Origin: a virus
Virus genome (UHGV): UHGV-0197611
DNA length: 15,153 nucleotides
Reading direction: 5' to 3' (one strand)
Positions within the stretch are counted from its first letter, which is position 1; each line of letters begins with the position of its first letter. Positions 1-14,941 of this stretch are shown here, piece after piece. A model generated the notes under the pieces. It was not told where the DNA came from. It did not search any database and saw nothing but the letters and a program-made list of their open reading frames with translations. The position numbers were made by a program, and so were the translations under genes.

Positions 1-110
1 ATAATATTTCGTCCACCGATACCCTTTATTTGGGTATCGCGAGTAAGCCCCAGAATCTGGGTGTTACTCTTACTACCCAAACTACGGGTAGTTTCCGTAG
101 TTTCATGGTC

Positions 111-421: not shown

Positions 422-482
422 GTGCAAATTTGCACTATGCCAGCCAACGCAATTTTGCGTTATCGGGAATATCAGCAAGTTA
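422..482. repeat. Left-end repeated module, copy B: 14-bp palindrome GTGCAAATTTGCAC (422-435), CCAGCCAAC (440-448), ATTTTG (452-457), TCGGGAATATCA (462-473), AGTTAC (477-482)
   Basis: Read directly. Lies immediately 3' of the 96-aa ORF on the minus strand, whose TAA stop at 480-482 sits inside the AGTTAC motif. Confidence 0.7.
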
Positions 483-770
483 CCGCCGCAGTCGTTCCGG
501 CTTCTTCCACTGGTAAGTATTTTTCGCGCTCTCCCTCCGTTGTTGAGAACGGCGACGGTATGCCAGCAACTCAAGGACTCTGGTTCGTATGTTGCGCATA
601 TCCACGCCGTTAAGCTCAATACCGTCACGGCGCATCACCTCAGCCACCACACGCGCGTAATTTTCGGCTATCACGCTGTCCGGCTGTGTAGCCTGTTCGT
701 CAGGCTGCTGACTGATTCCGGTAATGCGGCGAATTATTTTTAGTAGATCAGTTTCAGTCATTCTCGTCAT
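480..770 (-). CDS. Hypothetical protein (96 aa), translationally coupled to TerL; basic C-terminus
   Basis: ATG at 770-768 overlaps the TerL TGA stop (ATGA, 767-770). No recognisable motif. A plus-strand ORF (393..743) overlaps it and cannot be fully excluded. Confidence 0.5.
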   Translation of the reverse strand: MTRMTETDLLKIIRRITGISQQPDEQATQPDSVIAENYARVVAEVMRRDGIELNGVDMRNIRTRVLELLAYRRRSQQRRESAKNTYQWKKPERLRR

Positions 771-2428
771 ACCCCATCAAACGCCGCAAGTCGCTCTTTG
801 TGGCTGTCGCTCATATCAAATGCAAATTCCTCATGCTCTGCCTGGAATGTGCCAAACGCCATCAGCGCCGCAACGCTCGGGTCTATCTTGTTGGATGATT
901 TTTTCTTGTTCGGCTTGATATTGGCGTTCGCGTCACTCTGCATCACAACATTACTCATTGACCAGGCCAGCACCGGATCACCACGATGCACAATCACCTT
1001 CCGGTTAACAAAAACTTCGAACGATTTCGCCGCCGGACTGAAACGAAGGTATGTTTGCGGGAACGGCTCCACCTCAAATCCTGCCCCCTGTAGCTGCGTC
1101 CTCAGGTGCGTGGCGTTCCATGTATCGAAGCCCACCAGCCTGATATTGAAATTCTCTGCATCCGCCATGATGTCATCACGGATACGGTCATAATCAATGC
1201 AGTCACCCGGTGTTGTGCGTATCCAGCCCGCCTTTACCCACTGGCGATAGATGGCGCGGTTTTTATTGGCGGGGTTCTGTAGCTGAAATTCCGGCAGATA
1301 GTGACGGGAAACCAGCATAATCTTTTTACCGACCGGAAAGGCATAGCACACGCTGGAAATATCGCTGGTTGATGATAAGTCCAGCCCCGCGTAGCACTCC
1401 TGCCCGTATAAATCCGCCTCCGCGAACGTTCCGGCGCACTCCGCCCATGCACCGTTACCCATCCACGGCGTAGCCCCCTGACACCAGATATTGAATCGCT
1501 TGGTGAGCATTTCCACCCACTGCGACGGAATACCCCGCGCTTTCTGGATGGTTGAGGCCAGTTTTTCACGATCGACGGAAACATCGATATTTGGATTCGC
1601 CTTTATCCACATCGCCGGATCGTCAACCTCGCTTTCATCATCCAGCTCGTAAATCAGAACGAACATGGATTCGTTCATCTCTTCACCATCCAGTATCTGA
1701 CAGCAATAGTCATAGTGTTGTTTACAGGCTGAAACAACGTTGCTCCCCGATGTGGTGATGGCAAATAACAGCCCCTCCGGACGCGCCCCCATCCCCAGCT
1801 CAAGTGCGGAATAAACCCCGTTGTCTGGGTGCAGGTGATATTCATCCACAATGGCAAGACTCGGGTTTGTCCCCTCAATGGTTGCCGCTTTTGCTGCCAG
1901 TGGCTTTAACAGGCTGTTGGTTTTCGGGTGTATCACCTTGTGCGCCTGAATATTTACCCGCTTTCGTAACGGTCGGGATAAAAGGCACATCTGACGCGCA
2001 TCATCAAACACGATCCGCGCCTGATCACGACTCACGGCGGCGGTGTAAATATCCTGCTGCCCGTTTTCCATAACCAGAAACCAGTTAGCCAGGATAGCGG
2101 CGACCGTGGATTTGGCATTTTTTCGCGGTACTTCAATGAATGCGCTGGTGTATTTGCGCCGTCCGGTGGCCTTAACCTTAAAGCCCAGGATGCAGGCAAA
2201 GGCGAACTGCTGCCACGGCTCCAGTTCAATGGGACTACCGCGCATTGCGCCTTTTACGTGCGGACACACCCGGGAAAAGGCAATAAACCGCTCCACGACA
2301 TCCGGATCGAACGTGTAAAGGGAGTTTTCAAGGTCAGAAAAATACCGTTTAACGGCCTGTTTCAGTCGTTTACAGGCCGTAATTTTGCCGTTTTTTACGC
2401 CTTCTGCGTACTCATGCCAGGCGGTCAA
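767..2428 (-). CDS. terL: Terminase large subunit (HK97-like Terminase_1 type)
   Basis: 553-aa translation with deviant Walker A-like VPRKNAKST and Walker B-like LAIVDEYH, and overall large-terminase character. The only in-frame start before the conserved N-terminus is TTG at 2428-2426. The TerS stop (2412-2414) overlaps the 5' end. Confidence 0.92.
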   Translation of the reverse strand: MTAWHEYAEGVKNGKITACKRLKQAVKRYFSDLENSLYTFDPDVVERFIAFSRVCPHVKGAMRGSPIELEPWQQFAFACILGFKVKATGRRKYTSAFIEVPRKNAKSTVAAILANWFLVMENGQQDIYTAAVSRDQARIVFDDARQMCLLSRPLRKRVNIQAHKVIHPKTNSLLKPLAAKAATIEGTNPSLAIVDEYHLHPDNGVYSALELGMGARPEGLLFAITTSGSNVVSACKQHYDYCCQILDGEEMNESMFVLIYELDDESEVDDPAMWIKANPNIDVSVDREKLASTIQKARGIPSQWVEMLTKRFNIWCQGATPWMGNGAWAECAGTFAEADLYGQECYAGLDLSSTSDISSVCYAFPVGKKIMLVSRHYLPEFQLQNPANKNRAIYRQWVKAGWIRTTPGDCIDYDRIRDDIMADAENFNIRLVGFDTWNATHLRTQLQGAGFEVEPFPQTYLRFSPAAKSFEVFVNRKVIVHRGDPVLAWSMSNVVMQSDANANIKPNKKKSSNKIDPSVAALMAFGTFQAEHEEFAFDMSDSHKERLAAFDGV

Positions 2429-2768
2429 GTTCGTCCTCTTCCTCTGTTTCCGGTGGATTTCTGCGACGGCTTACCGGGTCAAAACCCAGCAAAGAAGCCA
2501 TTTTGATCATTATTCTTTCTGCGTCAGCCTTTGCGCTCAGTGCGGGGTTTCTGCTCTCGCTGCCCTGACTGTTAACAATGCTGAACCCGCGCGTCGCAAG
2601 GTCTTCGACGGCTTTGCGGTATATGGAGTAGTTAACACAATACAGTTCCAGATTGCTCCAGTCGGCGGGGGTAAGGTCTTCCCGCCCGGAAAGCTGGCGC
2701 GATTTTTCCTTCCACTGCCTGACCGCGATTTCATCCAGGTAAGCGGGGGCTTTTGGTGGTCTTGCCAT
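2412..2768 (-). CDS. terS: Terminase small subunit (P27-family-like)
   Basis: ATG at 2768-2766 gives 118 aa beginning MARPPKAPAYLDEIAVRQW... with the conserved LELYCVNYSIY segment typical of P27-type small terminases. The longer track ORF (to 2909) starts upstream at a non-conserved extension. Confidence 0.82.
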   Translation of the reverse strand: MARPPKAPAYLDEIAVRQWKEKSRQLSGREDLTPADWSNLELYCVNYSIYRKAVEDLATRGFSIVNSQGSESRNPALSAKADAERIMIKMASLLGFDPVSRRRNPPETEEEDELDRLA

Positions 2769-2887
2769 GTTCTTTTTTCGCCCAATTATTTTCAAAAAAA
2801 TTACCGTGCACAAAAATTTGAGGGGGCGGTCGGTGTCCGGCAGGGACGGTTTCGTCCTGAAAACCACCCCCACCCCCTCTGACGGCC
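2769..2887. other. Structured intergenic region between HNH gene cluster and terS; candidate cos/packaging-initiation region or attenuator
   Basis: G/C-run inverted repeat GAGGGGG (2820-2826) / CCCCCTC (2873-2879) enclosing an imperfect hairpin CAGGGACGGTTTCGTCCTG, flanked on the terS side by A/T runs. Its position between HNH and terS is where HK97-type cos sites are expected. Confidence 0.3.
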
Positions 2888-3073
2888 TCACCAGCGATTG
2901 CGAAAACATTCCATGACCTCGCGGTCACGGTCGGTTAATCGCTTCGCTGTGGTGCGTTTTGTGCGCCCTGTCCTGTTGGCTTTGTGCTCTGTCTCCTGTG
3001 TCTTCCATGTGTCACGCTGCCTTATCAGTCCACGTATCAGCCTGGTTTGCTCCTGTTCAGTCATCATCGCCAT
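2888..3073 (-). CDS. Small basic hypothetical protein (about 61 aa), start overlapping the HNH stop
   Basis: ORF MAMMTEQEQTRLIRGLIRQRDTWKTQ... fills part of the 288-bp gap between HNH and terS. No clear RBS. The track's 126-aa version overlaps HNH in another frame and is unlikely. Confidence 0.3.
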   Translation of the reverse strand: MAMMTEQEQTRLIRGLIRQRDTWKTQETEHKANRTGRTKRTTAKRLTDRDREVMECFRNRW

Positions 3074-3497
3074 ACATCCAGTCGTTACGGTGTGCCGCCC
3101 GTTCTTCCTGCTCGCGATACATGCCCGCTTTACGGTTTGCTTTCGTGGCTGGATCTTCCCGTGTCGTCTTACGGTTGTGGCACGTCTGGCACAATGCCTG
3201 GTGATTCCACTCAGGCCAGAAGAGAACATCACCGCCGCCATTGATGGGAATGATGTGATCCACCACAAGAGCTGGCGTATAAATCCCCTTAGCCAGACAA
3301 CGCACGCATAACGGGTTTTTGCTCAGGTACAGGGCGCGGTATTTGTCCCACTGTCGGGAATACCCGCGCGCGCGGCGGTGTCCCCGTCTGGCATCCTCTG
3401 CACGCCATGCAGCCCGCCTGTGCTCTTCACACTTGCCGGACTTCACGCGCTTATTACAGCCAGGCTCAGTGCATCGCCTTAATGGTTGCCACGGCAT
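3057..3497 (-). CDS. HNH endonuclease (terminase-associated type)
   Basis: 146 aa with Cys pairs (CTEPGC, CVRC, CQTC) and the HNH core DHIIPINGGGD...NHQALCQTCHNRK. ATG at 3497-3495 overlaps the upstream gene's TGA stop (TGATG). Confidence 0.88.
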   Translation of the reverse strand: MPWQPLRRCTEPGCNKRVKSGKCEEHRRAAWRAEDARRGHRRARGYSRQWDKYRALYLSKNPLCVRCLAKGIYTPALVVDHIIPINGGGDVLFWPEWNHQALCQTCHNRKTTREDPATKANRKAGMYREQEERAAHRNDWMYGDDD

Positions 3498-3799
3498 CAG
3501 TACACCCCTACGTCACGATAAACTGACCAGAGCGCAGAAATAGCCATAGGCAGTTCCGAGTGCTCCACTGGTGAAACCGCTTCCCGGTTCTCGTACAGGA
3601 AAGCGATGTACATCAGGCAACCAACACGCATTGCCGGGGTAAATTCCAGCCCGTCTTCAAAACGTTTCCCGATATGCTTCTGGCAGGCTTCCAGCGCCGC
3701 ATCGGTATACATTTTCAGAAGTTCGCCTTCACCGGATAAATCATCATCAAGTCGAAGATGTGCCCTGACTTCATCAGGTGTAATTCTGGCTTCACTCAT
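3497..3799 (-). CDS. Head-tail connector protein (gp6-like, Phage_connect_1 type)
   Basis: ATG at 3799-3797 preceded by GGGAGA RBS. The 100-aa product MSEARITPDEVRAHLRLDDD... matches the characteristic N-terminus of gp6-like connectors. The track ORF begins at an upstream GTG. Confidence 0.75.
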   Translation of the reverse strand: MSEARITPDEVRAHLRLDDDLSGEGELLKMYTDAALEACQKHIGKRFEDGLEFTPAMRVGCLMYIAFLYENREAVSPVEHSELPMAISALWSVYRDVGVY

Positions 3800-5006
3800 C
3801 TTTTCTCCCTTTAATTTCCACAGTCTGTTTCCATGCCTGGCTGAACTCATCACCACCTTCACGCGGCGGCATACCCTCACGCTCACGGGCTTCGTTCGGA
3901 TTCATGATCCCGTTCTTAATCCCTTTCTCATACGTGGCATAACGTTCGGTGGGTGTGGCGCGTAATAAATCGGCTGAATCAAACTCAACCAGATAACGGG
4001 TACCAGGTACGGGAGAAGCCACCAGCAAAGCGGCCTTGATTTGCTGTTCGAAGTTCGCCAGCCACGGGCGCATTGTCATGGTCAGAAACGCGCGGCTTGC
4101 CTCGCTGAAATTGCTGTAGGTGCTGTTGCTGTATTCCTGCAGAAAAATAGGCGATACGTTGAACATGCGGGCGATGTCTTCAATGGAGAAGCGACGGGAG
4201 GCCAGCCATTCCGCATCCTGGTTACTCATTCCCAGTTGCCTGTAATCCATGCCCCCTTCAAGGATTGGCGTTTTTCCGGCATTTTTCGCCCCCTTGTAGC
4301 GTTCCAGAGCATCCAATGCCTGTTTACCTTTCACGCCGTCCAGCCATTCGCCTGACGTGATAATCCCTGCCGCCATCATGCCATCTTTCATAATGCTGGC
4401 TCCGTGGCGCTGTTGAGCAAGGCCAAGCCCAAGTGCCTCACGGCAAATCGTGACGGGGGAGCGCCCCAGAAAGCCATCATCCGAGGCATAGCGGAGATGC
4501 AGAACTTCTTCCTGTAAATACGTGCGCACCGTTCCTGTATAGGGTTCGGTGATGGTATAGCGGTATTTGTGTGCGCCTGTGCGTTCCGGTACAACACACC
4601 CCGGCGCATAAGGATGAAGTGATTTTGGCTGCCCGTCCTGCCCCCACTCAATAACCGCATAGGCGTTACCGTTCAGCAGGCAGTGACGCATCATTGTGCG
4701 TTTAAACTGGTAAGGTGTCTGGCACGAATTAGGCTGCTCATTCAGCAGAATATCTACCGGGTGACTGTCCAGCCATTCCCGCGCCTCCCTGCCCTTGTCA
4801 TTACGTACCAGATACAGATAACACGGCATCGTGGCCACCGCCTCAGCGATGACAGAAACCGCATTCATCACTGCAGGCAATGATTCAGCCGTCCCGGCAG
4901 AAACATATTCTCCGGATCCGGTATTCGGTACGCCGGACAGCGCCAGAAAATCATCAATGGACAGGTTACGCTGCTCGCTTTTTTTACGACTAAAAGGCCA
5001 CCACAT
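3792..5006 (-). CDS. Portal protein (HK97 family-like)
   Basis: About 400-aa product downstream of the prohead protease and upstream of the connector. Start chosen at ATG 5006-5004 (MWWPF...), 1 nt after the protease TGA stop. The track's TTG start at 5096 would overlap the protease gene by 90 nt. Confidence 0.85.
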   Translation of the reverse strand: MWWPFSRKKSEQRNLSIDDFLALSGVPNTGSGEYVSAGTAESLPAVMNAVSVIAEAVATMPCYLYLVRNDKGREAREWLDSHPVDILLNEQPNSCQTPYQFKRTMMRHCLLNGNAYAVIEWGQDGQPKSLHPYAPGCVVPERTGAHKYRYTITEPYTGTVRTYLQEEVLHLRYASDDGFLGRSPVTICREALGLGLAQQRHGASIMKDGMMAAGIITSGEWLDGVKGKQALDALERYKGAKNAGKTPILEGGMDYRQLGMSNQDAEWLASRRFSIEDIARMFNVSPIFLQEYSNSTYSNFSEASRAFLTMTMRPWLANFEQQIKAALLVASPVPGTRYLVEFDSADLLRATPTERYATYEKGIKNGIMNPNEAREREGMPPREGGDEFSQAWKQTVEIKGRKDE

Positions 5007-5007
5007 A

Positions 5008-5568
5008 TCACAACCCCGCCAGCTCAGACCAGCGATGACGATTATTTCCTGTCGGGCATAATTCAGGGTGCTGTGCAAACAACGAACGGTGGGCAATCTC
5101 CACGCCAGATTCTGGATAAGCAGGCATCGACGTTATTGTGATTTCACGGAGTTCAGCGGCGGTTACGGTACGCAAATACGGTTTTTGCGCGATACTCCAC
5201 TCCTCGCATAATGCGCGAAAACCAAAGCTCATTCCTGTAATGTCGCCACGCTCCACCAGCGTAAGCACATCTTTTCCAAGCTGGGTATCCGGCGGTGTCA
5301 GTTCAAAACGTAACCCGGTGTTATCCTCAGTCAGTACCAGAGTGCCGGATTTGGTGCGCCCCAGCAGTTGGGTATAGTCATGCTCATACAGGCAGCGCAC
5401 ATCATTACCCGCCGCCAGATAGTCAGCAAAAGCCCCCGGCGTGAACTGTTCGCGGAATTCGTCCCAGATAATTTCTGAAAGGCTGTTCCAGCGAACGGCA
5501 TACCCCACCAGCTTTTTATTGCTGGCGGTCAGTTCAGATGTGCGGATTTCAAAATCGGTGTTTTTCAT
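5008..5568 (-). CDS. Prohead maturation protease (HK97 family, S78-like)
   Basis: 186-aa product with the typical N-terminus (..LVGYAVRWN..) and size. ATG at 5568-5566 with GGAG upstream. Sits between capsid and portal. Confidence 0.88.
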   Translation of the reverse strand: MKNTDFEIRTSELTASNKKLVGYAVRWNSLSEIIWDEFREQFTPGAFADYLAAGNDVRCLYEHDYTQLLGRTKSGTLVLTEDNTGLRFELTPPDTQLGKDVLTLVERGDITGMSFGFRALCEEWSIAQKPYLRTVTAAELREITITSMPAYPESGVEIAHRSLFAQHPELCPTGNNRHRWSELAGL

Positions 5569-5587
5569 CGGTGTACTCCATAAAGCT

Positions 5588-5609
5588 GAAAAAGGAGGCC
5601 GCAGCCTCC
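5588..5609 (-). terminator. Intrinsic terminator/attenuator immediately downstream of the major capsid gene
   Basis: Minus-strand stem GGAGGC-(TGCG)-GCCTCC (plus 5594-5609) followed by TTTTTC (plus 5588-5593), 14 nt after the capsid TAG stop. Confidence 0.6.
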
Positions 5610-5622
5610 TCCTTACTCATGA

Positions 5623-6792
5623 CTAGCCAGCTTTCATTTCCAGAATTTTGATGGCGTTTGAATCCACCACACCACCGCCCAGATATTTATCCGTGTGGAC
5701 CTTGTAGAATCCGGGTTCAGTAATGTTGTCCGGTCGGGTGCGAATCCCTGTTACATGATCAACGATGAAATAACCACGACTGAAATCGCCAACCGCTAGC
5801 GGTGCTTTTCCTGCGCCGATGTCCGGCATGGACTCCAGGCAGTAAACAGGACGACCAAGCAACATATCCGGCGCACCTTCTTTAAGGCTGTCGCGCCAGA
5901 TATAATCGCCGTTCTCATTTTTCAGCTTCTGTAGTGTCCCTGCCGTGCCCGAGTTCATCACCCAGACGGCATTTTTGCGGTATTTCGCTTTCAGCTTGTA
6001 GAGAATGTCGATCAGTTCGTCCGCTGTAATGGCGGTTCCACTTGCCGCTACCATTTTTTCAATGGTGCCAAAAGCGCGGGTTTTGTCACTGGTCGCCGCA
6101 CGGGTGTAAGCCATGAAGCCTTTCGGCTTGCCGTTACCGTTGCCATTAACAAAATCATCCTCTTCGGTGCTGGCGAACGTGTCGGCAATTTCGGAGGATA
6201 ACCAGCCCAGAATATCCACCTCTGAAAAATCTAGGATTTCCTGCGTGGTTTTCGGGTAGGCGTAGATCGGGTTCAGCTTGATGGTTACGCGTTCAATTTT
6301 CGGGGTGTTGGTTTCACTGCGTGCGCTGCCTTCTGTGCCTCGTCCTACAGTTGCGCCGCCAGTGGAAACCAGTTTCTGAAACTCATTTGATTTTGCAGTC
6401 TTCACGGTCGCGATCACGCGCATAACACTGTCATCCTGTAGCTGGCGCATGACTTCGCGATCAAGCTCAGGAATTACGGTATATCCGCCATCCCTGCCGC
6501 TGTCAGTGCTGGTGGACAGAGATCGCACATCTCCGGTTACGATGTAGTTACGCAATTCATCAGATGATACTTTCTGGATGCCCGTTCCTGGCTTGCTGCG
6601 TTCTTCATCAGCCACAGACTCGAGGCGGGAAATGTCTGTATCGAGGGAATCAGCTTTTGCACGCAGTTCATCAAACTGTTTGCCCTCGTCATCGTTCAGG
6701 CTGCGGTTTTCACTGTCGGCTTTTTCCAGCAGGGATCGCATCTGGTTTTTCAGGGCGTTTTTTTGCTGGCGGAGCTCGATTAATTTCTTCAT
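5623..6792 (-). CDS. Major capsid protein (HK97 fold) with N-terminal delta/scaffolding-like coiled-coil domain
   Basis: 389 aa. The N-terminal ~100 residues are charged and coiled-coil-like (MKKLIELRQQKNALKNQMRSLLEKAD...) and are followed by a capsid body. ATG at 6792-6790. Gene order capsid-protease-portal. Confidence 0.9.
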   Translation of the reverse strand: MKKLIELRQQKNALKNQMRSLLEKADSENRSLNDDEGKQFDELRAKADSLDTDISRLESVADEERSKPGTGIQKVSSDELRNYIVTGDVRSLSTSTDSGRDGGYTVIPELDREVMRQLQDDSVMRVIATVKTAKSNEFQKLVSTGGATVGRGTEGSARSETNTPKIERVTIKLNPIYAYPKTTQEILDFSEVDILGWLSSEIADTFASTEEDDFVNGNGNGKPKGFMAYTRAATSDKTRAFGTIEKMVAASGTAITADELIDILYKLKAKYRKNAVWVMNSGTAGTLQKLKNENGDYIWRDSLKEGAPDMLLGRPVYCLESMPDIGAGKAPLAVGDFSRGYFIVDHVTGIRTRPDNITEPGFYKVHTDKYLGGGVVDSNAIKILEMKAG

Positions 6793-7039
6793 GAAGGTTT
6801 TCTCGTATTGGTTAAGATTCAGGACGTGAAACCAACACGGAGGGAGCGCCGCCCGACACTCTCGGCATCTCGCAGATCAACCCGGCATCGCGCAGGGGAT
6901 CGGACGGCAACAGTGGCGGCTCACGTCTGAGTGCCACTATTTAAGATATGGATCAAAAAATTGATGTAAATAAGGTATTTTTGTTACGAACAGTCTTGAA
7001 TGTTAACACACAAATAATTTACAAAAATGCTGATAAACT

Positions 7040-7786: not shown

Positions 7787-7845
7787 ACAAAATACACTTT
7801 CAAATCTACTAGTTAAACGCAAAAGCGATCACGAGGAGCAACATA

Positions 7846-8355
7846 ATGGATCTTAACGTCATGGCATATCCAGAAAAATTCACAATCGCAGGAGTTGAAT
7901 ACAAGGGGAAAAGAAACTCAGCTGAAAAAAAAGTGCTAATCCCTTATACTGAAGAACCAGATATTAATATTGGAGATGAAATCACTCAAAAACTAGGGAA
8001 GGGGGAAATAATATTAAAAGTAATTGATATGTCATTTTTACCAGGAGGTACACTCAATGTTGGTACTAATCACCCTCACATGCTTACATTAAAAGTCGAG
8101 AATCTGACTGCTAATGAACATAAACCAAAACAATCTAGCCAAAATACATTTAACATTGGTAACATATCCGGTACACAGGTTCAACTCGGTGAGCATAACA
8201 ATCTTATTGTAAATCTCAGCATAACTGAACTTGTTGAAAAAGTTTCTCAATCACAAGATCCTCAGGCAAAAAATTTGCTTAAGGATTTACTAAATAATAG
8301 TACGGTAGCCAGTCTCGTTGGTGCTGGTGCGTCCGCCTTGTTAACAATGCTTTGA
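7846..8355 (+). CDS. Hypothetical protein (169 aa), second cassette gene; short hydrophobic small-residue C-terminal tail
   Basis: ATG at 7846 preceded by GAGGAG (7833-7838). Shares the module FNIGNISGTQVQLGEHNNLIV...KNLLKDLL with the upstream protein. Ends in TVASLVGAGASALLTML. Followed immediately by a strong hairpin. Confidence 0.8.
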   Translation: MDLNVMAYPEKFTIAGVEYKGKRNSAEKKVLIPYTEEPDINIGDEITQKLGKGEIILKVIDMSFLPGGTLNVGTNHPHMLTLKVENLTANEHKPKQSSQNTFNIGNISGTQVQLGEHNNLIVNLSITELVEKVSQSQDPQAKNLLKDLLNNSTVASLVGAGASALLTML

Positions 8356-8356
8356 G

Positions 8357-8388
8357 TATATGGCCTGGCAAAGAGCCAGGCCATATAA
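8357..8388. terminator. Bidirectional hairpin between convergent genes
   Basis: Perfect 13-bp stem TATATGGCCTGGC / GCCAGGCCATATA with 6-nt loop, 2 nt after the plus-strand stop (8353-8355) and 1 nt before the minus-strand stop (8390-8392). No long T-tract on either side. Confidence 0.55.
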
Positions 8389-8389
8389 T

Positions 8390-8650
8390 TCATTTCTCAC
8401 TCATCCAATTAGGAGGTAGTGGCATTTTTTTCCTTAAAACCTGCAAATGCTCAATCAAAACATTAACCTGCTCTTGATTTGTTGCAAGGATTTCATCTGA
8501 TAGCGTGCTACGAATAAAATCATGATGGTCAATCCACAGTAAACCACCATTTGCAAGGGCCTGACGGTACTGAGTGGTAGGCATTGAAGCAATATCATGA
8601 AGTCCGAATTGATCAAAATAATTGTTTATTTCATGCGTCAGAATCGGCAT
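8390..8650 (-). CDS. Hypothetical protein (86 aa)
   Basis: ATG at 8650-8648 with AGGAAG RBS. AT-rich. Located between the iteron origin and the cassette, convergent with the cassette. A tandem TTTATCTAA x2 (8664-8681) lies in its 5' leader. Confidence 0.6.
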   Translation of the reverse strand: MPILTHEINNYFDQFGLHDIASMPTTQYRQALANGGLLWIDHHDFIRSTLSDEILATNQEQVNVLIEHLQVLRKKMPLPPNWMSEK

Positions 8651-8792
8651 TATTTCTTCCTATTTTATCTAATTTATCTAATTTGTAGTCATTTTTAACC
8701 AGTATTCGGTCAAATCAAGCGCGTGTTTTTGTGTGCTTTACTGTCATAGTCTTTATCTCACAGCAGTAAATTAAAATTTTTGCGTTTTAACC

Positions 8793-9020
8793 CTTCACCT
8801 GTTCACCTTTTGATATTTTATCTTTTAATTCATAAGGTTAAGGGGTGAACAGTTTCACAAAAACTATTCACCAACTGTTCACCACTGTTCACCCTTGAAG
8901 CTCAATAAACAATCAAAAAGGTGAACAGTGAATAGTTTGGTGAACAGTTCATAAATAACTGTTCACCCTATAATATACTGATATAAAAGATATTTATGAC
9001 AGGGTGAACAGTGGTGAACA
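8793..9020. repeat. Iteron array / putative origin of replication (P4 type I-like octamer TGTTCACC)
   Basis: Nine perfect copies of TGTTCACC/GGTGAACA in both orientations (plus strand 8800, 8876, 8886, 8960; complement 8844, 8920, 8939, 9003, 9013), plus degenerate copies (8793, 8865, 8928), interspersed with AT-rich spacers and lying immediately 3' of the replication gene. Confidence 0.8.
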
Positions 9021-9034
9021 GTTATTCCATAAGT

Positions 9035-10852
9035 TTAATTTTTGCTATCGTCATTAGTGACCGATACACATGATGGCATCCAGTCTTCTGATTCCTCCGT
9101 CAGTGTCACGTTTGAACGCAAACCGTGCTTCGTTTTCCGTTTCATATACTCCCTGCCATATTCCGCCATTGCCCCCGGCATATCTTTACCGAAGCGCGTC
9201 AGTGTTACAGGTTTACCAAACCCATGTGCCCTCATATAAGCCAGATAGGCATGATAGAGATATCTGCGCGGGCTGAATGGCACAATTTCAGCATTACCCA
9301 CTAACAGGCCATCACACATTACCGACGCCATGAGATAGCCGCAGAAGTCCACCAGCGAATCCCCCTCTCGCTTTATCGCCAGTGCTTCTTCAGATTTCTG
9401 CTGCTCATATAACAGGCGTCTGGCTTCGTCCTGGTTAGCAAACCGTGTAAGCAGATGGCGAATCACTACCGCCAGCTCACCTTCTATTTTTTCCGCCAGC
9501 ATCGGATCACGTTCGTTCTCCGGTACAACTTCCGAAAAATTGAATATCACCCGACGACGTGAGATCCCCCCGCTGCGGTCACTGAATGACATGGCGTTAT
9601 TGTTAACCGCCAGCACTACTGCCGGAATACGCGTTGAGTAGGGAGCTTTGTGTTTCGGGTCAATTGCCACCTTGTCACCGCCTGTAATGGCCTTAATCCC
9701 TGCCCCATCACCAGCGTAGCGGGTCATATCCGGCATGATAATCAGAGAAAAGCCAACCACTAACGCACGTTCCCTTGCATCTTCCAGCGCCTTCATGCTT
9801 GCTGATACTGTATTAGCCTTACCCGCCAGCATGGTGCAAATCTCCGCCATTACGCTTTTACCGCTTCCACCAGGACCAGTTACCTCAATGAATAACTGCC
9901 AGTCATATCTGTTCGCCAGCACCATGAATAATGCCGCCAGTACACGATCCGCTTTGCGATCATTCTCAGCCACCGAACGGTGCAACCACTTCCAGAAATT
10001 CGGCGCATGTGTTGCCAGCGTTTCCCCCTCTGCTGGTGGGCTGAAAGGTAATTCACTGGCAATTAACAACCAGTCGTTTTTGTTATGCTCCCGAAAATTA
10101 CCTGTTCTGGTATCAAATACCCCGTTACTGAATCCAATCAAGTTACGGGCTGTATTCCCCATTACAGGCAAACTTAACTTCATGGTATCGACCGCTGATT
10201 TAATAGCGTTCTGTGAATAGCTGATCTCCGCATCAATGAAAATCTGCGCCATAGCACGCTGTAACTCTTTATCCTGAACCGGCTCCCATACAACGCCGTT
10301 GTAATGGTGAACAGTGTCAGAGTCAGCATGAATCGCCAGTTCACCACCATAATGTGCCAGGAGAACTTCGCCGCGTTGACTTGCTCCCATCTGGTTAAGC
10401 GCCAGTGATGAAGCGTTATCGTCTTTTACCCGCTCTTTTTTCTTTACAGGCAGTTCAACAACCTTTTTCTTTTCCGCCAGCTCTCCCCGCTCACGCTCCA
10501 GATATTCGCGCCAGTTCTCCCGTTTCTGGCTGTGCATTCCTTCAGGGTAATAATCAGCATCCCTGACACCTGCCGCTGCCAGTTTCTGCCCGATGGTATT
10601 AACAAGTCCCGGACGCAATAACCCCGCCTGATAGAGACGCACACGATAGCGTCCGTCTGGTACGATTTGCAGGTTGTCCAGTTCGGCAAGTTGTTGCTCT
10701 CCAAGCCAGACAGGTGGCACGTTATCGCCAGCCAGTCGCCCGTCCTGTTCCTGCCACTGCTTCGCATGTGCCCACGCATCACTACCCGCAAAAATGATGA
10801 CTTCCGTCATTTTGTCACGCGGTTGGTGTTTTAAATTTGGCGCTTTTTTCAT
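9035..10852 (-). CDS. Replication protein, P4-family primase C-terminal (D5_N-like) + SF3 helicase (alpha-like)
   Basis: 605 aa from ATG 10852-10850, which overlaps the upstream gene's stop (ATGA). The track start is an upstream GTG. Walker A GPGGSGKS and Walker B-like SLIIMPD. Iterons lie directly downstream. Confidence 0.88.
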   Translation of the reverse strand: MKKAPNLKHQPRDKMTEVIIFAGSDAWAHAKQWQEQDGRLAGDNVPPVWLGEQQLAELDNLQIVPDGRYRVRLYQAGLLRPGLVNTIGQKLAAAGVRDADYYPEGMHSQKRENWREYLERERGELAEKKKVVELPVKKKERVKDDNASSLALNQMGASQRGEVLLAHYGGELAIHADSDTVHHYNGVVWEPVQDKELQRAMAQIFIDAEISYSQNAIKSAVDTMKLSLPVMGNTARNLIGFSNGVFDTRTGNFREHNKNDWLLIASELPFSPPAEGETLATHAPNFWKWLHRSVAENDRKADRVLAALFMVLANRYDWQLFIEVTGPGGSGKSVMAEICTMLAGKANTVSASMKALEDARERALVVGFSLIIMPDMTRYAGDGAGIKAITGGDKVAIDPKHKAPYSTRIPAVVLAVNNNAMSFSDRSGGISRRRVIFNFSEVVPENERDPMLAEKIEGELAVVIRHLLTRFANQDEARRLLYEQQKSEEALAIKREGDSLVDFCGYLMASVMCDGLLVGNAEIVPFSPRRYLYHAYLAYMRAHGFGKPVTLTRFGKDMPGAMAEYGREYMKRKTKHGLRSNVTLTEESEDWMPSCVSVTNDDSKN

Positions 10853-11148
10853 TTCTGCTCTCTCCACGCGGCAATCATGTTTTTCAGTTCCTGTAGTTTT
10901 TTATCCACATCCACACGTGACACATGGTTATTTCTGGAAGGCGGGATTTCCCGCCCGAATCTGCAAATAAAGATCTCCACGTTCAGCGAGCTATGAAATG
11001 AATAGCCATCACGAATAAAGTACACACGGTCAAACATTATCGATTTTACTGTTACTCTGTTGCCGTTCTTATCCCGATAAATAGCGCCGGGGATAATTTT
11101 GGGATGTGCATAACCGCTGGCAGTCAAGCCAGATAAATACGTTCTCAT
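10849..11148 (-). CDS. Hypothetical protein (99 aa), translationally coupled to the replication gene
   Basis: ATG at 11148-11146. Stop overlaps the primase start. No recognisable motif. Confidence 0.6.
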   Translation of the reverse strand: MRTYLSGLTASGYAHPKIIPGAIYRDKNGNRVTVKSIMFDRVYFIRDGYSFHSSLNVEIFICRFGREIPPSRNNHVSRVDVDKKLQELKNMIAAWREQK

Positions 11149-11154
11149 GATTAT

Positions 11155-11475
11155 TTATCCCCGATTTGAATCAGTATTCGCTTTCTTTATGGCATTTAAT
11201 GCATCTGTGGCATTTTCAATGGTGCACCGTAACGAAATATCAAAATGTCCAAGCATTGCCAGTAACAAACCGATATTACCCATATCAATGCGCATGGCCT
11301 TTGCGTCATATTCCTCATTTTCTGACGCATGCCACATCAGGCTACCAATTGACGCAACAGCCATTGATATATTGTCAGTAGCCCCATCCGCAGCGGAATA
11401 AACCTTTTTAGCAATATCATGCTCACAGTTAAAATGCGGATTAATCAGGTACTGGTAATTTGACATATCAGGCAT
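11155..11475 (-). CDS. Hypothetical protein (106 aa)
   Basis: ATG at 11475-11473 preceded by strong SD AAGGAGGT with 5-nt spacing. Overlaps the stop of the upstream small ORF. Confidence 0.65.
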   Translation of the reverse strand: MPDMSNYQYLINPHFNCEHDIAKKVYSAADGATDNISMAVASIGSLMWHASENEEYDAKAMRIDMGNIGLLLAMLGHFDISLRCTIENATDALNAIKKANTDSNRG

Positions 11476-11671
11476 GGCGCACCTCCTTGCGGATACGGGC
11501 GGTGAACACCATCACGCAGCCAGCTGGGGATTGCTGGCGGGCTTCCTGTTCACTGGTGGCCACGATGGTAATCACACGCGGTTTTGCGGCGCTCAGGGCG
11601 ATAAAACGCCAGGTGAATTTATTCAGGTTGTGCGAATCCCGCCCTCGCGGGTGTGTGGTATGATTTAACAT
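11468..11671 (-). CDS. Small protein (67 aa), possibly Icd-like (host cell-division inhibitor family of P4-like elements)
   Basis: ATG at 11671-11669 with GAGGT RBS. Product MLNHTTHPRGRDSHNLNKFTWRFIALSAAKPRVITIVATSEQEARQQ... resembles my recollection of Icd-like proteins; not verified. It is the C-terminal part of an otherwise implausible 304-aa ORF. Confidence 0.45.
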   Translation of the reverse strand: MLNHTTHPRGRDSHNLNKFTWRFIALSAAKPRVITIVATSEQEARQQSPAGCVMVFTARIRKEVRHA

Positions 11672-11752
11672 AGCTACCTCGATAATCTTGCTATCGTTGG
11701 TGGTTAGACGCCCTACATGTGTTGCGAGCACTGCGGGGCGTTGCTCTTTTAG

Positions 11753-11798
11753 GTGTATTTCACCTTTGCTTTTTAATTTACTCACTGGTGAAATACAC
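11753..11798. promoter_or_regulatory. 12-bp perfect inverted repeat GTGTATTTCACC / GGTGAAATACAC with 22-bp spacer in the divergent regulatory region
   Basis: Read directly. Arms resemble the ori octamer (TTCACC core). Followed on the plus strand by T-runs and a TATACT -10-like hexamer (11829-11834) upstream of the small plus-strand gene. Confidence 0.5.
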
Positions 11799-11864
11799 TT
11801 CAAGCCTTTTTTTATCATTTTTTTTGCGTATACTGACATACACCAATTTTTAGGAGATCCAGAA

Positions 11865-12044
11865 ATGGCAACTGGTGCAAAGAACGCAAAATCACAAATG
11901 ACAACTGTCAGAATCCCACATGAAGTAATGGATGATATTGAGCAACTTAAAGAACCTGGCGAAAGTACCGCTGGTTTTTTAGTTACTGCCGCAAAAGGCG
12001 AGATCAAACGCCGCCAGCGGCGCAAGGCCAAAGAGCAGGAGTAA
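11865..12044 (+). CDS. Small charged protein (59 aa), candidate DNA-binding regulator
   Basis: ATG at 11865 preceded by AGGAG (11853-11857). Product MATGAKNAKSQMTTVRIPHEVMDDIEQLKEPGE...KRRQRRKAKEQE. Transcribed divergently from the replication operon. Confidence 0.5.
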   Translation: MATGAKNAKSQMTTVRIPHEVMDDIEQLKEPGESTAGFLVTAAKGEIKRRQRRKAKEQE

Positions 12045-12101
12045 CCATCACCAGCGCCGTGATGCGGTGAACTGTGGCGCACAGGGTTACAGGTATCTAC
12101 G

Positions 12102-12281
12102 ATGACTGACAAATTATTAAAGAAATTATCCTCATCTAGGAAAAAACAACGCAAAAATGCGGTAAACGAACATGAACCGGAGAGATTCGCACCATGTGCG
12201 TTTGTCCTTGAGAAGTACCTTAAAGAGTATTCCAGGAAAATATGCTCATTGCAGGCATGGCAACAAATCGATCCAGACTGA
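12102..12281 (+). CDS. Small hypothetical protein (59 aa)
   Basis: ORF not in the supplied track (below the size cut-off), found by reading the sequence: MTDKLLKKLSSSRKKQRKNAVNEHEPERF... Weak RBS. Lies between the upstream small gene and a plus-strand terminator. Confidence 0.3.
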   Translation: MTDKLLKKLSSSRKKQRKNAVNEHEPERFAPCAFVLEKYLKEYSRKICSLQAWQQIDPD

Positions 12282-12345
12282 TAGCATTGCCCACCAGCCG
12301 ACAACCTGGTATTCTGGATATGCTCAAGTTTAGTGTTATGCCACT

Positions 12346-12373
12346 GGCGACCGCCCCCGGTCGCCTTTGTTTT
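12346..12373 (+). terminator. Rho-independent terminator of the plus-strand small-gene unit
   Basis: Stem GGCGACCG-(CCCC)-CGGTCGCC followed by TTTGTTTT, located just before the convergent alpA stop. Confidence 0.65.
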
Positions 12374-12390
12374 ATATACCATAACTCACC

Positions 12391-12612
12391 TTACGCCGAT
12401 TTCAGTTGTGCTTTGGGTTGACGATCAAGCCAATCATTAACCTCAGACAGCAACCAACCGACAGAACGAGCCCCCAACTGACGACGGGCTGGAAACACCC
12501 CTTTCCTTTCCATCATATAACGCGTCGTTCGGCAAATACCGGTAAGGCGTCGGCATTCCTCCTCACGAATGATGCGATCAAATTGGTCTTGCGATGATTT
12601 AACTTTGCTCAT
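12391..12612 (-). CDS. alpA: AlpA-family transcriptional regulator (phage/prophage regulatory protein)
   Basis: 73 aa from ATG 12612-12610 (GAGGG upstream), containing ...CRRLTGICRTTRYMMERKGVFPARRQLGARSVGWLLSEVNDWL, which matches the AlpA HTH and SVGW signature. The track ORF extends further upstream. Confidence 0.85.
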   Translation of the reverse strand: MSKVKSSQDQFDRIIREEECRRLTGICRTTRYMMERKGVFPARRQLGARSVGWLLSEVNDWLDRQPKAQLKSA

Positions 12613-12674
12613 ATGGATATGCCCTCGTTTATTATCGTTCGAGAGCATATTGATAATATGCTTAGAATATTTAG

Positions 12675-12705
12675 GTGATATCACATATTTTATATGTGAT
12701 ATCAC
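12675..12705. promoter_or_regulatory. Paired palindromic operator-like sites GTGATATCAC x2 (12675-12684 and 12696-12705), centres 21 bp apart, upstream of alpA
   Basis: Read directly. The second copy overlaps the stop codon of the 245-aa gene. A further palindrome AGCATAT-TGATA-ATATGCT lies at 12644-12662. Confidence 0.5.
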
Positions 12706-13439
12706 GTTCGCCCTAAGTATTTAGCCCACGTATTCTTATCTGTTGCGGGAAGAAACACCCCTTTCATCGCTGCCGCAGCCTCTAAAACAGCGATCACTTT
12801 AGCAACTGGAGCAGTTCCAATATCTATATCATCCATTTCTGGAATTAGTTTGATTAATGCAGGGATCAACTCAGCTTTCTTCGCAAGAGTTTTTGGCGAT
12901 TCTCCCATTTTTCTTCCAGGCATGGTTCCAACATCTTTGATATGCTCCAAATCCTTAGCCATTACACATAAAAACCTTCTGTCGATCTCAATAGCCCCAT
13001 CACTCATAATTTGACATTCCCAGTTTTCTGATTCAGGACGAGTTGAAAAAAAAGATGATACTATCCTTGCATCATTGCCAATAAATTCAAGTTCAGAAAA
13101 ACTTTCCCGATTTAGATAGAAGAAACCGCAAAAATTCTTTGCAAGATAAGAAGCCACACCAAAATAATTTACCCATTCAAAATCGCTACCAACAGGCTTC
13201 ATCCCTGTAATTACCCAGCGATCCCCTTGCAACATCCCTCCAGAATCAACATCAATATTTTCAACTAATGATTTTGGTATAACTAGCGATTTACATGGAT
13301 GACAGTTTGGAAAATAAACAGAAATATTCAAAGCACCTATAGCAGCAAAATGATATATATCATTAAGCGTACATCCCAGCTTCTTTGCTGCTTCAGGCAA
13401 TGGATAATATATACGCTCAGGGATGCTTATCTTTTTCAT
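12702..13439 (-). CDS. Hypothetical protein (245 aa) with N-terminal HTH-like segment; between integrase and alpA
   Basis: ATG at 13439-13437 overlaps the integrase stop (ATGA). N-terminus PEAAKKLGCTLNDIYHFAAIGAL looks like a helix-turn-helix. More AT-rich than int and alpA by eye. Confidence 0.75.
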   Translation of the reverse strand: MKKISIPERIYYPLPEAAKKLGCTLNDIYHFAAIGALNISVYFPNCHPCKSLVIPKSLVENIDVDSGGMLQGDRWVITGMKPVGSDFEWVNYFGVASYLAKNFCGFFYLNRESFSELEFIGNDARIVSSFFSTRPESENWECQIMSDGAIEIDRRFLCVMAKDLEHIKDVGTMPGRKMGESPKTLAKKAELIPALIKLIPEMDDIDIGTAPVAKVIAVLEAAAAMKGVFLPATDKNTWAKYLGRT

Positions 13440-14659
13440 TTCGCTACCTTCAATATTTTTACATTTGAATACTGACCAGAAATAACCTCAAGCCGTTCCA
13501 TCCATTTATTTAGAGCGTCTAGTTTTTCTGGTAAGTACTGGCTACGATTGTATATGGCCATTACACCACCTAATGTGTGACCGAGAAGCTGTTCAACAAC
13601 ATGTGGTGCAATCCCCATGTTATTTAGTGTGGTAGCAAACGTCCTGCGCAGGTCGTGAAGTGTCCACGATTCAATATGCCCCAGACGCTTATATATCATC
13701 CTCCCCCATTGGCTGACAGCTTCTGGTTTCTTTATTTCACCCAACAAAAGACCTGAGTTTTTGTGTTGCTCTATAAGCTGTTGGATGAATGGGCGTATTA
13801 CCACTGGAATAGGGCGCAATATCTTCTCTCCGCCTTTGCTGTGTTCTTTAGGCACTGTCCAGATCCAATCCTTTAAATCCCACTCTGTAATACGTGACAA
13901 CCGAAGCTCCTGGGTTCGACATCCAAACACCACCAATAGACGCAACAACGATGAATAGTATGGTTTAAATTTCTTACCTGAACATTCCTGCCAAATATCT
14001 GCTAACTCTTGACTGCTGTGTTCCCTATCGCGCTTATTCTGTTTTCTACCAACATCATCGATAGTCAGGTCATCCAGAGCATTGCTAACCGCATAACGAT
14101 GTACGCGGCAAAACTTCAGAGCCTGCTTACACATCTGCAGCAAATAACCAGCTGCCACTGGAGCGTCATTCCTTACTCTAGCGAAACACTCCAGCCAATG
14201 CCGGGTTTCGCACATTGATAACGGATAATCACCTATATAGGGGAAAATATGCTTCCTCAGTTGCTCAATGTGTTTATCAACATTCGTGCGCTTGTAAACG
14301 GCGTATTCTCTGATCCAGTAATCCAGAGCCTCTTTTACCGTCACTGGTTTGAGTGTTTCATGTATTGCCACATTTAACCGATGCTTTGGATTTTTACCTT
14401 CAGCAAGCCATGCTCGACACTGTTCACGTTTCTCGCGCGCAGCTTTCAGAGAAAGATCCGGGTAGTTTCCAAGCTTAACACGCTGTGAATACGATTCACG
14501 CCCACCAATCCGGAAAGAGAAATACCAAGTAAGAACGCCAATTTTTGACACCTTGATACTCAATCCATCACCGTCAGCATAAAATCTATCTCTATCGATT
14601 TCCCTCCCCAGCATCTTACGCAACGATGTATCGCTTAATTTGTTCGTTCCTCCAGCCAT
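13436..14659 (-). CDS. int: Tyrosine site-specific integrase (P4-like)
   Basis: 407 aa from ATG 14659-14657 (AAGG upstream); the track start is an upstream alternative codon. C-terminal catalytic signature HDLRRTFAT...LLGHTLGGVMAIYNRSQY and a typical N-terminal arm-binding-like region. Confidence 0.92.
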   Translation of the reverse strand: MAGGTNKLSDTSLRKMLGREIDRDRFYADGDGLSIKVSKIGVLTWYFSFRIGGRESYSQRVKLGNYPDLSLKAAREKREQCRAWLAEGKNPKHRLNVAIHETLKPVTVKEALDYWIREYAVYKRTNVDKHIEQLRKHIFPYIGDYPLSMCETRHWLECFARVRNDAPVAAGYLLQMCKQALKFCRVHRYAVSNALDDLTIDDVGRKQNKRDREHSSQELADIWQECSGKKFKPYYSSLLRLLVVFGCRTQELRLSRITEWDLKDWIWTVPKEHSKGGEKILRPIPVVIRPFIQQLIEQHKNSGLLLGEIKKPEAVSQWGRMIYKRLGHIESWTLHDLRRTFATTLNNMGIAPHVVEQLLGHTLGGVMAIYNRSQYLPEKLDALNKWMERLEVISGQYSNVKILKVAK

Positions 14660-14685
14660 AGAAAACCTTAATTCATATTGAAAAC

Positions 14686-14707
14686 TGACTGCACCACTGA
14701 CTGCACA
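14686..14707. repeat. Int-proximal direct repeat copy 1: TGACTGCAC-C-ACTGACTGCAC-A (two tandem TGACTGCAC units)
   Basis: Identical 22-mer recurs at 14920-14941. Copy 1 lies 27 bp upstream of the int start codon. Confidence 0.75.
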
Positions 14708-14875
14708 CTTTAATATTACCCTATGAACAGAAATGAACAAAGGTAAACTAAAGAAACAACATTAATCATTTTATTCAATAAGTTATATAAACACTAACGA
14801 ACCATGACAAACTGTAAGAAACATAGGTTTTGATAATACGGCATGAACTAATTCAGGTTAGCTAAATGCTTGATT

Positions 14876-14912
14876 AAAAAGGCGCTACTCGGCATGGGGA
14901 AGCGCCTTTTTT
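14876..14912. terminator. Possible bidirectional intrinsic terminator
   Basis: AAAAA - GGCGCT - 14-nt loop - AGCGCC - TTTTTT. The stem is short and the loop long, so stability is uncertain. Confidence 0.4.
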
Positions 14913-14919
14913 ATTAAAA

Positions 14920-14941
14920 TGACTGCACCACTGACTGCACA
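14920..14941. repeat. Int-proximal direct repeat copy 2 (identical 22-mer)
   Basis: Read directly. 234 bp from copy 1, on the far side of the hairpin. Confidence 0.75.

Follow-up and report, generated by a model that had tools for sequence, protein, structure and literature searches.

Phage-inducible chromosomal islands of the capsid-forming type (cf-PICIs) are abundant satellites that make their own heads, borrow tails and thereby move DNA between species, and both their definition and their gene order have been published (Alqurainy et al., 2022; He et al., 2025). SatelliteFinder detects them in 13% of Enterobacteriaceae genomes. The prototype, EcCIEDL933 of Escherichia coli O157:H7 (bioRxiv 10.1101/2022.09.08.507074), is 15.4–15.5 kb in length, fills a T=4 head and, according to its published gene order, carries int-alpA-replication followed by capsid-protease-portal-connector-HNH-terS-terL, without tail or lysis genes. 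Each of the three characterized cf-PICIs has both an adaptor and a connector, and these two proteins together determine tail compatibility (He et al.).

The DNA analysed here (the window, 15,153 nt in its entirety) very probably represents a complete cf-PICI of E. coli, written in its excised, circular (attP) form. The minus strand encodes, in series, an integrase, AlpA, a D5/P4-type primase-helicase with iterons, the major capsid protein (MCP), an S78 protease, portal, connector, HNH protein, TerS and TerL, so that the element (15.2 kb) resembles EcCIEDL933 in gene order; Pfam scans located every gene named in the original prediction, in the order given there. From one att core to the next the element measures 15,153 bp, within the range of about 10–18 kb for cf-PICIs. 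Since the class has already been described, this finding is correct but not new: the element is a further E. coli example and introduces no new principle. It does, however, provide a clean case at the fis site, one whose limits are fully defined and in which att, arm sites, ori and a putative cos have been mapped (Table 1).

Table 1. Features of the element, in window coordinates
Feature	Position	Strand	Basis
Complete cf-PICI (very probable), one unit, circularly permuted excised/attP arrangement	1–15153		Alignment to MS6198 L001
Conserved, strongly structured non-coding block, about 140 nt, four consecutive hairpins	13–150		Shared with classical E. coli PICIs
44-nt imperfect direct repeat (136–179/440–483)	136–483		Repeat analysis
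Conserved protein of 93–96 aa (orf96), basic C-terminal tail, last gene of operon	480–761/770	-	phrog_1561
Large terminase, TerL	767–2428	-	Pfam 2e-52 and 4e-26
Small terminase, TerS, P27 family	2412–2768	-	Pfam 4e-23
Putative cos: G-run GGGGGTGGGGGTGG ... GACCGCCCCCTCAAA, then T-run, TerS start	about 2817–2879	-	Layout as HK97 cos junction
61-aa protein	2888–3073	-	phrog_3173
HNH endonuclease, packaging accessory as HK97 gp74	3057–3497	-	Pfam 9e-10
gp6-like head-tail connector (Ad1 type)	3497–3799	-	Pfam 8e-5; PHROG 'head-tail adaptor Ad1' 2e-28
Portal protein	3792–5006	-	Pfam 2e-92
Prohead serine protease (S78)	5008–5568	-	Pfam 7e-46
MCP, HK97 fold, N-terminal delta-like region of about 100 aa	5623–6792	-	Pfam 5e-71
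Accessory gene 1, 248 aa, 35% GC	7040–7786	+	ORF
Accessory gene 2, 169 aa	7846–8355	+	phrog_5789
Hairpin, 13-bp stem, between convergent genes, bidirectional terminator-like	8357–8387		Sequence
86-aa protein	8390–8650	-	phrog_1957
Putative origin: 10 iterons GGTGAACAGT, both orientations, directly 3' of replication gene	8798–9022		Motif count
Replication protein, D5_N/DUF5906 P-loop/Pox_D5 primase-helicase	9035–10852	-	Pfam, NCBIfam
DUF4222 protein	10849–11148	-	Pfam
106-aa protein	11155–11475	-	phrog_15327
Icd-like protein	11468–11671	-	Family match, PHROG
YlcI/YnfO family small protein	11865–12044	+	Family match
AlpA-family regulator	12391–12612	-	PF05930, 3.4e-14
245-aa protein, low GC (39%), variable slot between int and alpA	12702–13439	-	ORF
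Tyrosine integrase with arm-binding domain, P4-type architecture	13436–14659	-	Arm-DNA-bind_3 1.4e-17, Phage_integrase 8.5e-16
Arm-type repeat pair (CTGACTGCAC x2), integrase side of core	14682–14707	+	Repeat analysis
att core, 80 bp: last 17 nt of fis plus fis terminator	14835–14914	+	Aligns to both island ends in MS6198
Arm-type repeat pair (A/CTGACTGCAC x2), opposite side of core	14916–14941	+	Repeat analysis

Boundaries and integration site

The window is 100% identical to an E. coli MS6198 island that has fis on one side and yhdJ on the other, though it is circularly permuted with respect to that island. Positions 1–14914 correspond to 10320–25233 of the MS6198 locus (L001) and positions 14835–15153 to 10001–10319, both at 100% identity; the length calculated from that locus (25233-10081+1) is 15153, exactly one unit, and the two window ends adjoin each other in the integrated copy. 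The window has one att core and the integrated copy has two, attL and attR; the second att repeat sought at the outset is present in MS6198, one core at each island end. Of 5426 complete E. coli genomes, 5424 have this core at the 3' end of fis. Metagenome contigs from IMG/VR and JGI yielded no attP junction.

These alignments alter the extent originally proposed, 480–14941: the feature is the whole window, its ends being contiguous in the integrated copy. The description of a nearly complete island with an uncertain left boundary holds as regards the island, yet the island is complete, and the uncertainty is removed by the circular permutation and the single attP-type junction at 14835–14914. 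Tail, baseplate or lysis genes to the left of the window would, as first argued, have indicated an ordinary prophage; in MS6198 about 780 nt of non-coding island sequence past TerL and orf96 is followed instead by chromosomal fis, and the pseudogene yhdJ lies outside the island on the integrase side. EcCIEDL933 appears to differ in its integration site: the O157:H7 genomes listed have a single match to the fis core, and the fis site is therefore taken as empty there, whereas the element described here uses the fis 3' end.

Capsid and packaging genes

The packaging genes form one operon on the minus strand (MCP, S78 protease, portal, gp6-like connector, HNH, 61-aa ORF, putative cos, TerS, TerL, 93-aa ORF), the coordinates of which match the proteobacterial cf-PICI order capsid-protease-portal-connector(s), hnh-terS-terL. 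All seven packaging components (capsid, protease, portal, connector, HNH, TerS and TerL) have significant Pfam scores and intact ORFs, and ORFs are intact throughout the element. The operon order is also that of KpCIDSM30104- and EcCIGN02175-type cf-PICIs and of a Klebsiella element (L245). The MCP is 63% identical over its full length (386 residues, E=8e-155) to PDB 9GYI, which according to its authors is the T=4 capsid of EcCIEDL933 (bioRxiv 10.1101/2025.02.11.637232); the alignment runs end to end and includes the 'connector loop' region (residues 227–248) with just a one-residue gap. Together with the literature, this similarity supports the proposed match to capsid-forming PICIs. The connectors of the two islands are expected to be about 60% identical.

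The packaging module (about 450–6937) is 93–99% identical, mostly 97–99%, in many proviruses with other integration and replication modules, and the same architecture recurs in Enterobacterales, Pasteurellaceae and Orbales, with 144 related loci in all. The putative cos lies between HNH and TerS; of 113 distinct related loci, most have kept its motif upstream of TerS, even at a TerS identity of 61%, and three metagenomic viral contig ends coincide with it.

Absence of an adaptor gene

Comparison with described cf-PICIs confirmed the gene order but revealed that the PF05521 head-completion or 'adaptor' gene, the second head-tail gene of EcCIEDL933, is missing. The 112-aa protein of a close relative (L005) gave no tblastn match in the whole window, and the gap between portal and HNH holds one gene only, the gp6-like connector, which is the sole head-tail joining gene present. 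The PF05521 protein is one of the 11 SatelliteFinder core components, of which 9–10 suffice for acceptance as a cf-PICI. Among the relatives, 110 of 144 have the PF05521 gene between portal and connector; the remaining 34 loci fall into at least seven connector clusters and several genera, and include a coherent clade of 25 loci with its own connector allele. The element points to a recurrent variant in which one of the two demonstrated determinants of tail compatibility is lacking.

It is tempting to speculate that this adaptor-less architecture, in which a diverged gp6-like connector comes straight after the portal, marks a working sub-class of cf-PICI whose head-tail interface differs, although we consider this rather doubtful. 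In such a sub-class, head-closure protein and tail might both come from the helper, or the connector might dock another tail class, its nearest true-phage counterparts being those of the contractile-tailed SfI/SfII/phiP27 group; either stable tail-less particles would not be made by the KpCIDSM30104 route, or the helper range would be different. The element could also be a cf-PICI by descent that is crippled or differently dependent, its own particle being no longer transferred or an extra helper neck protein being required, in that filled heads lacking the adaptor would not be closed alone and would not join the tails of the studied islands. The prevalence of the gene among relatives, and its presence beside the connector in every characterized cf-PICI, favour this second explanation, which we nevertheless regard as unlikely, given that the one-gene state recurs across so many connector clusters, genera and a whole clade, and that the remaining genes are all intact, observations that speak against decay and for a working variant that is being maintained. 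Helper range and packaging specificity can be approached experimentally through the adaptor-less variant, the cos motif conserved among relatives and the hairpin block that classical PICIs also have.

Proposed life cycle

Our working model for the element as a cf-PICI takes its steps from the characterized relatives EcCIEDL933, KpCIDSM30104 and EcCIGN02175; its induction, the size of its capsid, its packaging and its dependence on helper tails are predicted by homology. Integration at the fis 3' end, by means of the tyrosine integrase, the 80-bp core and the arm-type repeats, is shown by the sequence itself. A helper phage would set off alpA expression, leading to excision and to replication from the island's own origin. 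Island MCP, protease and portal would then assemble small T=4 heads with room for about 15 kb, and the TerS-TerL-HNH complex would cut the putative cos between HNH and terS and fill only these heads. Finally, the connector would dock a helper-supplied tail, a step that, since the adaptor gene is absent, may differ in detail from that of the studied islands.

Relationship to tailed phages

The element shares with HK97 the families of its MCP, S78 protease, portal, gp6 connector, TerS/TerL and HNH packaging factor, and also the position of its putative cos between HNH and terS, with a similar layout of G-run, C-rich segment and T-run. HK97 differs in its 39.7-kb genome, its T=7 head and its order of terS-terL-portal-protease-MCP-gp6-..., followed by tail genes. 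The HK97 MCP was not found by phmmer at E<=0.001 with the MCP of the element, and among solved capsids from outside the PICIs, those of the Rhodobacter gene transfer agent come nearest.

Head and packaging proteins drawn from phage families, together with connectors whose nearest true-phage relatives (34–40% identity) are in SfI, SfII and phiP27 of the contractile-tailed group, might suggest an HK97-like prophage remnant that has lost its tail and lysis genes. We consider such an origin very improbable. The gene order is neither the phage order nor its rotation (SfII and HK97 both have terS-terL-portal-protease-MCP-Ad1-Hc1), as the original prediction of a permuted head module had it; the 15-kb unit is directly bracketed by the att repeats, beyond which lie fis and yhdJ; its replication and regulation modules are of the PICI/P4 kind; more than 140 loci across bacterial families contain the same tail-less unit; and when the whole window was compared by megablast with 50,697 phage records, the best of them (vB_KppS-Ant, 16.5 kb) reached a coverage of 34%. 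The expectation that nothing tail-like would be present was also borne out: searches of Pfam, PHROGs, NCBIfam and PADLOC matched none of the unassigned ORFs to a family of tail or lysis proteins, no ORF of the window has a holin-like hydrophobic segment, and the tail, lysis and immunity modules of an intact HK97-like temperate phage are absent from the 15,153-bp unit and its chromosomal flanks.

Replication, regulation and accessory genes

The integrase gene adjoins the att core and arm repeats. The 2022 search criterion was a divergent regulator pair by int; here alpA has the same orientation as int, and the only small gene on the opposite strand, that of the YlcI/YnfO protein, is convergent with alpA rather than divergent. 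A 304-aa ORF at 11468–12382 was rejected as one real gene, and the Icd-like protein was taken instead. The primase-helicase is akin to the C-terminal region of P4 alpha, scoring 95.6 bits against TIGR01613 ('primase, P4 family'), below the cutoff of 108.7. The iterons reported beside the replication gene are real; the whole window has 13 copies of GGTGAACAGT, where chance would give 0.88, and 10 of them lie within the putative origin.

The module of integrase, AlpA, Icd-like, DUF4222 and primase genes is of the kind found in classical E. coli PICIs (EcCICFT073 type; PMC6092414, PMC6739421), and an island at clpS in O157 AR-0427 has the same gene series and shares the distal hairpin block and an orf96 homologue or remnant. 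That the element is a P4-like satellite or classical PICI with some captured head genes is nevertheless scarcely credible, as its MCP-protease-portal-connector-HNH-TerS-TerL set is complete and intact, portal and head-tail genes are forbidden for classical PICIs in SatelliteFinder, no Sid, Psu or Delta-type protein of the P4 capsid-size hijacking operon was detected by Pfam or PHROG in any ORF, and the P4 resemblance is limited to the sub-cutoff primase region. Classical PICIs use helper capsids and a lambda-like cosN plus Rpp, whereas the element described here encodes its own heads and terminase; the window contains no lambda cosN and no detectable Rpp homologue, and orf96 resembles no PDB structure, either in sequence or in fold. 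The small ORF and repeats noted earlier past TerL are present, the 44-nt repeats flanking a variable insert of about 270 nt that is missing in some relatives.

The 245-aa protein has no match in Pfam, NCBIfam or PADLOC, and in the Klebsiella element the same int-alpA slot holds an unrelated DUF6387 protein. That element further differs in possessing a PF05521 gene, an AAA_25 helicase-type replication module and other genes past TerL, but it has the same three accessory genes in the same place, two on the opposite strand (244 aa and 169 aa) and an 86-aa ORF. The accessory genes of EcCIEDL933 differ from those found here. The C-terminal part of the accessory gene 1 product resembles the product of accessory gene 2. 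Separately, the phage record vB_KppS-Ant itself looks like a further cf-PICI.

Gene content and classification

All open reading frames (ORFs) of the window are intact, and the gene list and minus-strand order given in the original prediction were borne out by a six-frame ORF listing and profile scans (see table). The iterons that it had claimed are real, with 10 copies of GGTGAACAGT lying directly 3' of the replication gene, and the motif has 13 matches window-wide against 0.88 expected. An Rfam scan of the window gave a single sub-threshold let-7 match, which fell on the iterons and is due to chance, and no tRNA or tmRNA was found in the window. No window ORF matched a tail, baseplate or lysis family in profile scans, and none contains a holin-like hydrophobic segment.

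Features of the UHGV-0197611 window
Feature	Position	Strand	Basis or remark
Hairpin block	13-150		four hairpins in series
44-nt imperfect direct repeat	136-179 / 440-483		
93-aa ORF (orf96)	480-761	-	last gene of packaging operon
TerL	767-2428	-	profile scans
TerS, P27 family	2412-2768	-	profile scans
Putative cos, HK97-like motif	~2817-2879		
61-aa ORF	between HNH and TerS	-	ORF listing
HNH	3057-3497	-	profile scans
gp6-like connector	3497-3799	-	profile scans
Portal	3792-5006	-	profile scans
S78 prohead protease	5008-5568	-	profile scans
Major capsid protein (MCP)	5623-6792	-	profile scans
Low-GC stretch between 86-aa ORF and MCP gene	7040-8355	+	248-aa and 169-aa genes
86-aa protein of no assigned function	8390-8650	-	ORF listing
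Iterons	8798-9022		
Primase-helicase, 605 aa	9035-10852	-	profile scans; D5_N/DUF5906/Pox_D5
106-aa protein of no assigned function, then DUF4222 protein	between Icd-like gene and primase-helicase	-	
Icd-like protein	11468-11671	-	profile scans
AlpA	12391-12612	-	profile scans
245-aa protein of no assigned function, low GC	12702-13439	-	slot between int and alpA
Tyrosine integrase, arm-binding domain	13436-14659	-	ORF listing and profile scans
CTGACTGCAC tandem pairs	14682-14707 and 14916-14941		either side of att core
80-base att core	14835-14914		

Phage-inducible chromosomal islands of the capsid-forming class (cf-PICIs) are defined as elements of 10-18 kb with an integrase and with regulation and replication modules, lacking lysis genes and a tail module (He et al., 2025), and in those of Proteobacteria the genes for morphogenesis stand ahead of hnh-terS-terL (Alqurainy et al., 2022, bioRxiv 10.1101/2022.09.08.507074). 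The gene order of the window, earlier described as permuted, is this published order; in contrast, in SfII and HK97 the order is terS-terL-portal-protease-MCP-Ad1-Hc1 and HNH lies next to cos at the far end, and the window order is no rotation of theirs. The window MCP is 63 % identical over 386 residues (E=8e-155) to PDB 9GYI, which according to its authors is the T=4 capsid of the cf-PICI EcCIEDL933 (bioRxiv 10.1101/2025.02.11.637232), and the 'connector loop' that they single out falls inside the alignment; HK97 gp5 was not detected against this MCP at E<=0.001. In length the unit (15.15 kb) agrees with the 15.4-15.5 kb with which the EcCIEDL933 T=4 head is filled, the comparison with this island resting on the papers and on 9GYI. 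A 'phage' fragment propagated on EDL933 was considered as EcCIEDL933 DNA and rejected, as it belongs to another cf-PICI lineage and not to EDL933. The packaging module (~450-6937) recurs at 93-99 % identity, mostly 97-99 %, in many IMG/VR proviruses with differing integration and replication modules, and relatives at 59-77 % MCP identity span Enterobacterales, Pasteurellaceae and Orbales.

Taken together, the published definition, gene order, MCP match, unit length and module sharing argue for filing the element as a cf-PICI, and the same interpretation in the original prediction is supported by gene content and order, the MCP likeness to 9GYI and the lack of tail and lysis genes. Its presumed life cycle we infer by analogy from the characterized islands. 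Descriptions of the class date back to 2022 and its catalogued members number hundreds, so the window is a further well-delimited member and not a new kind; what goes beyond the published accounts that we found is only the adaptor-less head-tail module, the conserved putative cos motif and the hairpin block common with classical PICIs. After the EcCIEDL933 capsid, the Rhodobacter capsulatus gene transfer agent has the solved capsids closest in sequence to the window MCP (E ~1e-54).

Between the MCP and replication genes lies an accessory trio of low GC, comprising the partly paralogous 248-aa and 169-aa proteins and the 86-aa ORF. A Klebsiella cf-PICI with another replication module has kept the trio in the same place; the trio matched no known families or defence models, and a fold search was uninformative. 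The int-alpA interval seems to be a second slot for variable cargo, given that the slot of a Klebsiella cf-PICI holds a DUF6387 gene unrelated to the 245-aa gene of the window.

Integration site and boundaries

The window is 100 % identical to part of the E. coli MS6198 chromosome, to which it aligns as two pieces, window 1-14914 corresponding to 10320-25233 of the MS6198 locus (L001) and window 14835-15153 to L001 10001-10319. It is a circular permutation of the integrated island, both ends of which match the 80-base att core. The two-piece alignment and the presence of this core at both island ends argue that the window is exactly one excised-form unit (25233-10081+1 = 15,153 bp) with one attP-type junction; the left boundary, at first thought uncertain, is thus that of a whole unit, circularly permuted. 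In MS6198 fis borders the island at one end and the pseudogene yhdJ at the other, the genes beyond them being ordinary chromosomal ones, and the tail genes just past TerL that would mark an ordinary prophage were looked for there and are absent. Physical cos ends were rejected as an explanation of the window ends, which are contiguous in MS6198 and in a related locus (L012).

The final 17 nt of the fis gene (…YGMN*) together with its terminator make up the att core; of 5426 complete E. coli genomes, 5424 have it in a single copy, at fis. The tandem pairs of CTGACTGCAC on each side of it fit putative arm-type sites, such as the arm-binding domain of the integrase would lead one to expect. In 20 complete E. 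coli genomes, with isolates from human, dog, pig and seawater, 80 % or more of the element is present. Neither the attP junction nor the window start had an exact match in IMG/VR and JGI metagenomes, and we found no paper naming the MS6198 island.

Head-tail module

All three characterized cf-PICIs have an 'adaptor' and a 'connector', and the tails that can be joined are set by these two proteins (He et al.). A closely related locus, L005, encodes a 112-aa PF05521 'head completion protein' between portal and gp6-like connector (L005 10251-10589), of which there is no trace in any frame of the window. The space between portal and HNH, measured across 144 related loci, has room for two genes in 110 and for one in 34. 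The clade of the window (25 loci) is entirely one-gene, and its connector is an allele of its own that shares 56-59 % identity with the L005 type; further one-gene loci, from Leclercia, Pantoea, Erwinia, Serratia, Gilliamella and Xenorhabdus, are spread over at least six other connector clusters. For SatelliteFinder 9-10 of its 11 markers suffice, so adaptor-less islands are already counted, and a functional account of them was not found in the literature. The nearest true-phage connectors to that of the window are those of SfI, SfII and phiP27 (34-40 % identity), and the L005-type connector matches a broader set of phages; this difference may serve as a lead.

Putative cos

For terminases of the HK97 type that have an HNH partner, the cut is made at a cos situated between terS and the gene for HNH. 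In the window this region has 119 non-coding bases, running on the minus strand as GGGGGTGGGGGTGG, ~35 nt, GACCGCCCCCTCAAA, TTTTT…, a T-run and, last, the ATG of TerS; the layout at the HK97 cos junction is the same. Most of 113 distinct related sequences, down to 61 % TerS identity, have retained the motif upstream of TerS, and the ends of three independent metagenomic viral contigs fall in the ~65-nt zone, which we regard as a putative cos with an HK97-like motif.

Distal region and orf96

The hairpin block is conserved and non-coding (RNA fold z = -7.0, either strand), and 718 of 5426 E. coli genomes contain it. Hairpin 1 shows one compensatory change, one lineage has lost 9 nt of hairpin 3, and Rfam gave no match to the block. 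A classical PICI beside clpS in an O157 strain, which forms no capsids of its own, has the block at its distal end (L249 17001-17169), adjoining a truncated orf96 homologue, and the block is flanked there by a duplicated unit resembling the 44-nt repeat of the window. A lambda-type PICI cos, at the block or at the window junction, was rejected, as neither the window nor L249 contains a GGGCGGCGACCT cosN, and blastn showed no meaningful similarity to the lambda cos region. The 44-nt repeat duplicates the orf96 3' end and brackets a variable insert of ~270 nt, which is absent in three related loci (L004, L012 and L016) and is other sequence in two (L009 and L014).

The C-terminal tail of the orf96 protein is strongly basic (YRRRSQQRRES…KKPERLRR), and a basic tail is also a mark of its family, which is large and very conserved (962 clusters, all unannotated). 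An Rpp/TerS-like DNA-binding role found no support from sequence or fold searches: orf96 matched no solved chain by sequence at E<=1, and its weak AF2 model (pLDDT 68) gave no Foldseek match at E<=0.001. In a Klebsiella cf-PICI the place of orf96 after TerL is taken by a gene (L244-L246 1747-2361) whose 204-aa product weakly matches Lambda_tail_I, and then comes a 116-aa ORF, so that the post-TerL position varies among cf-PICIs.
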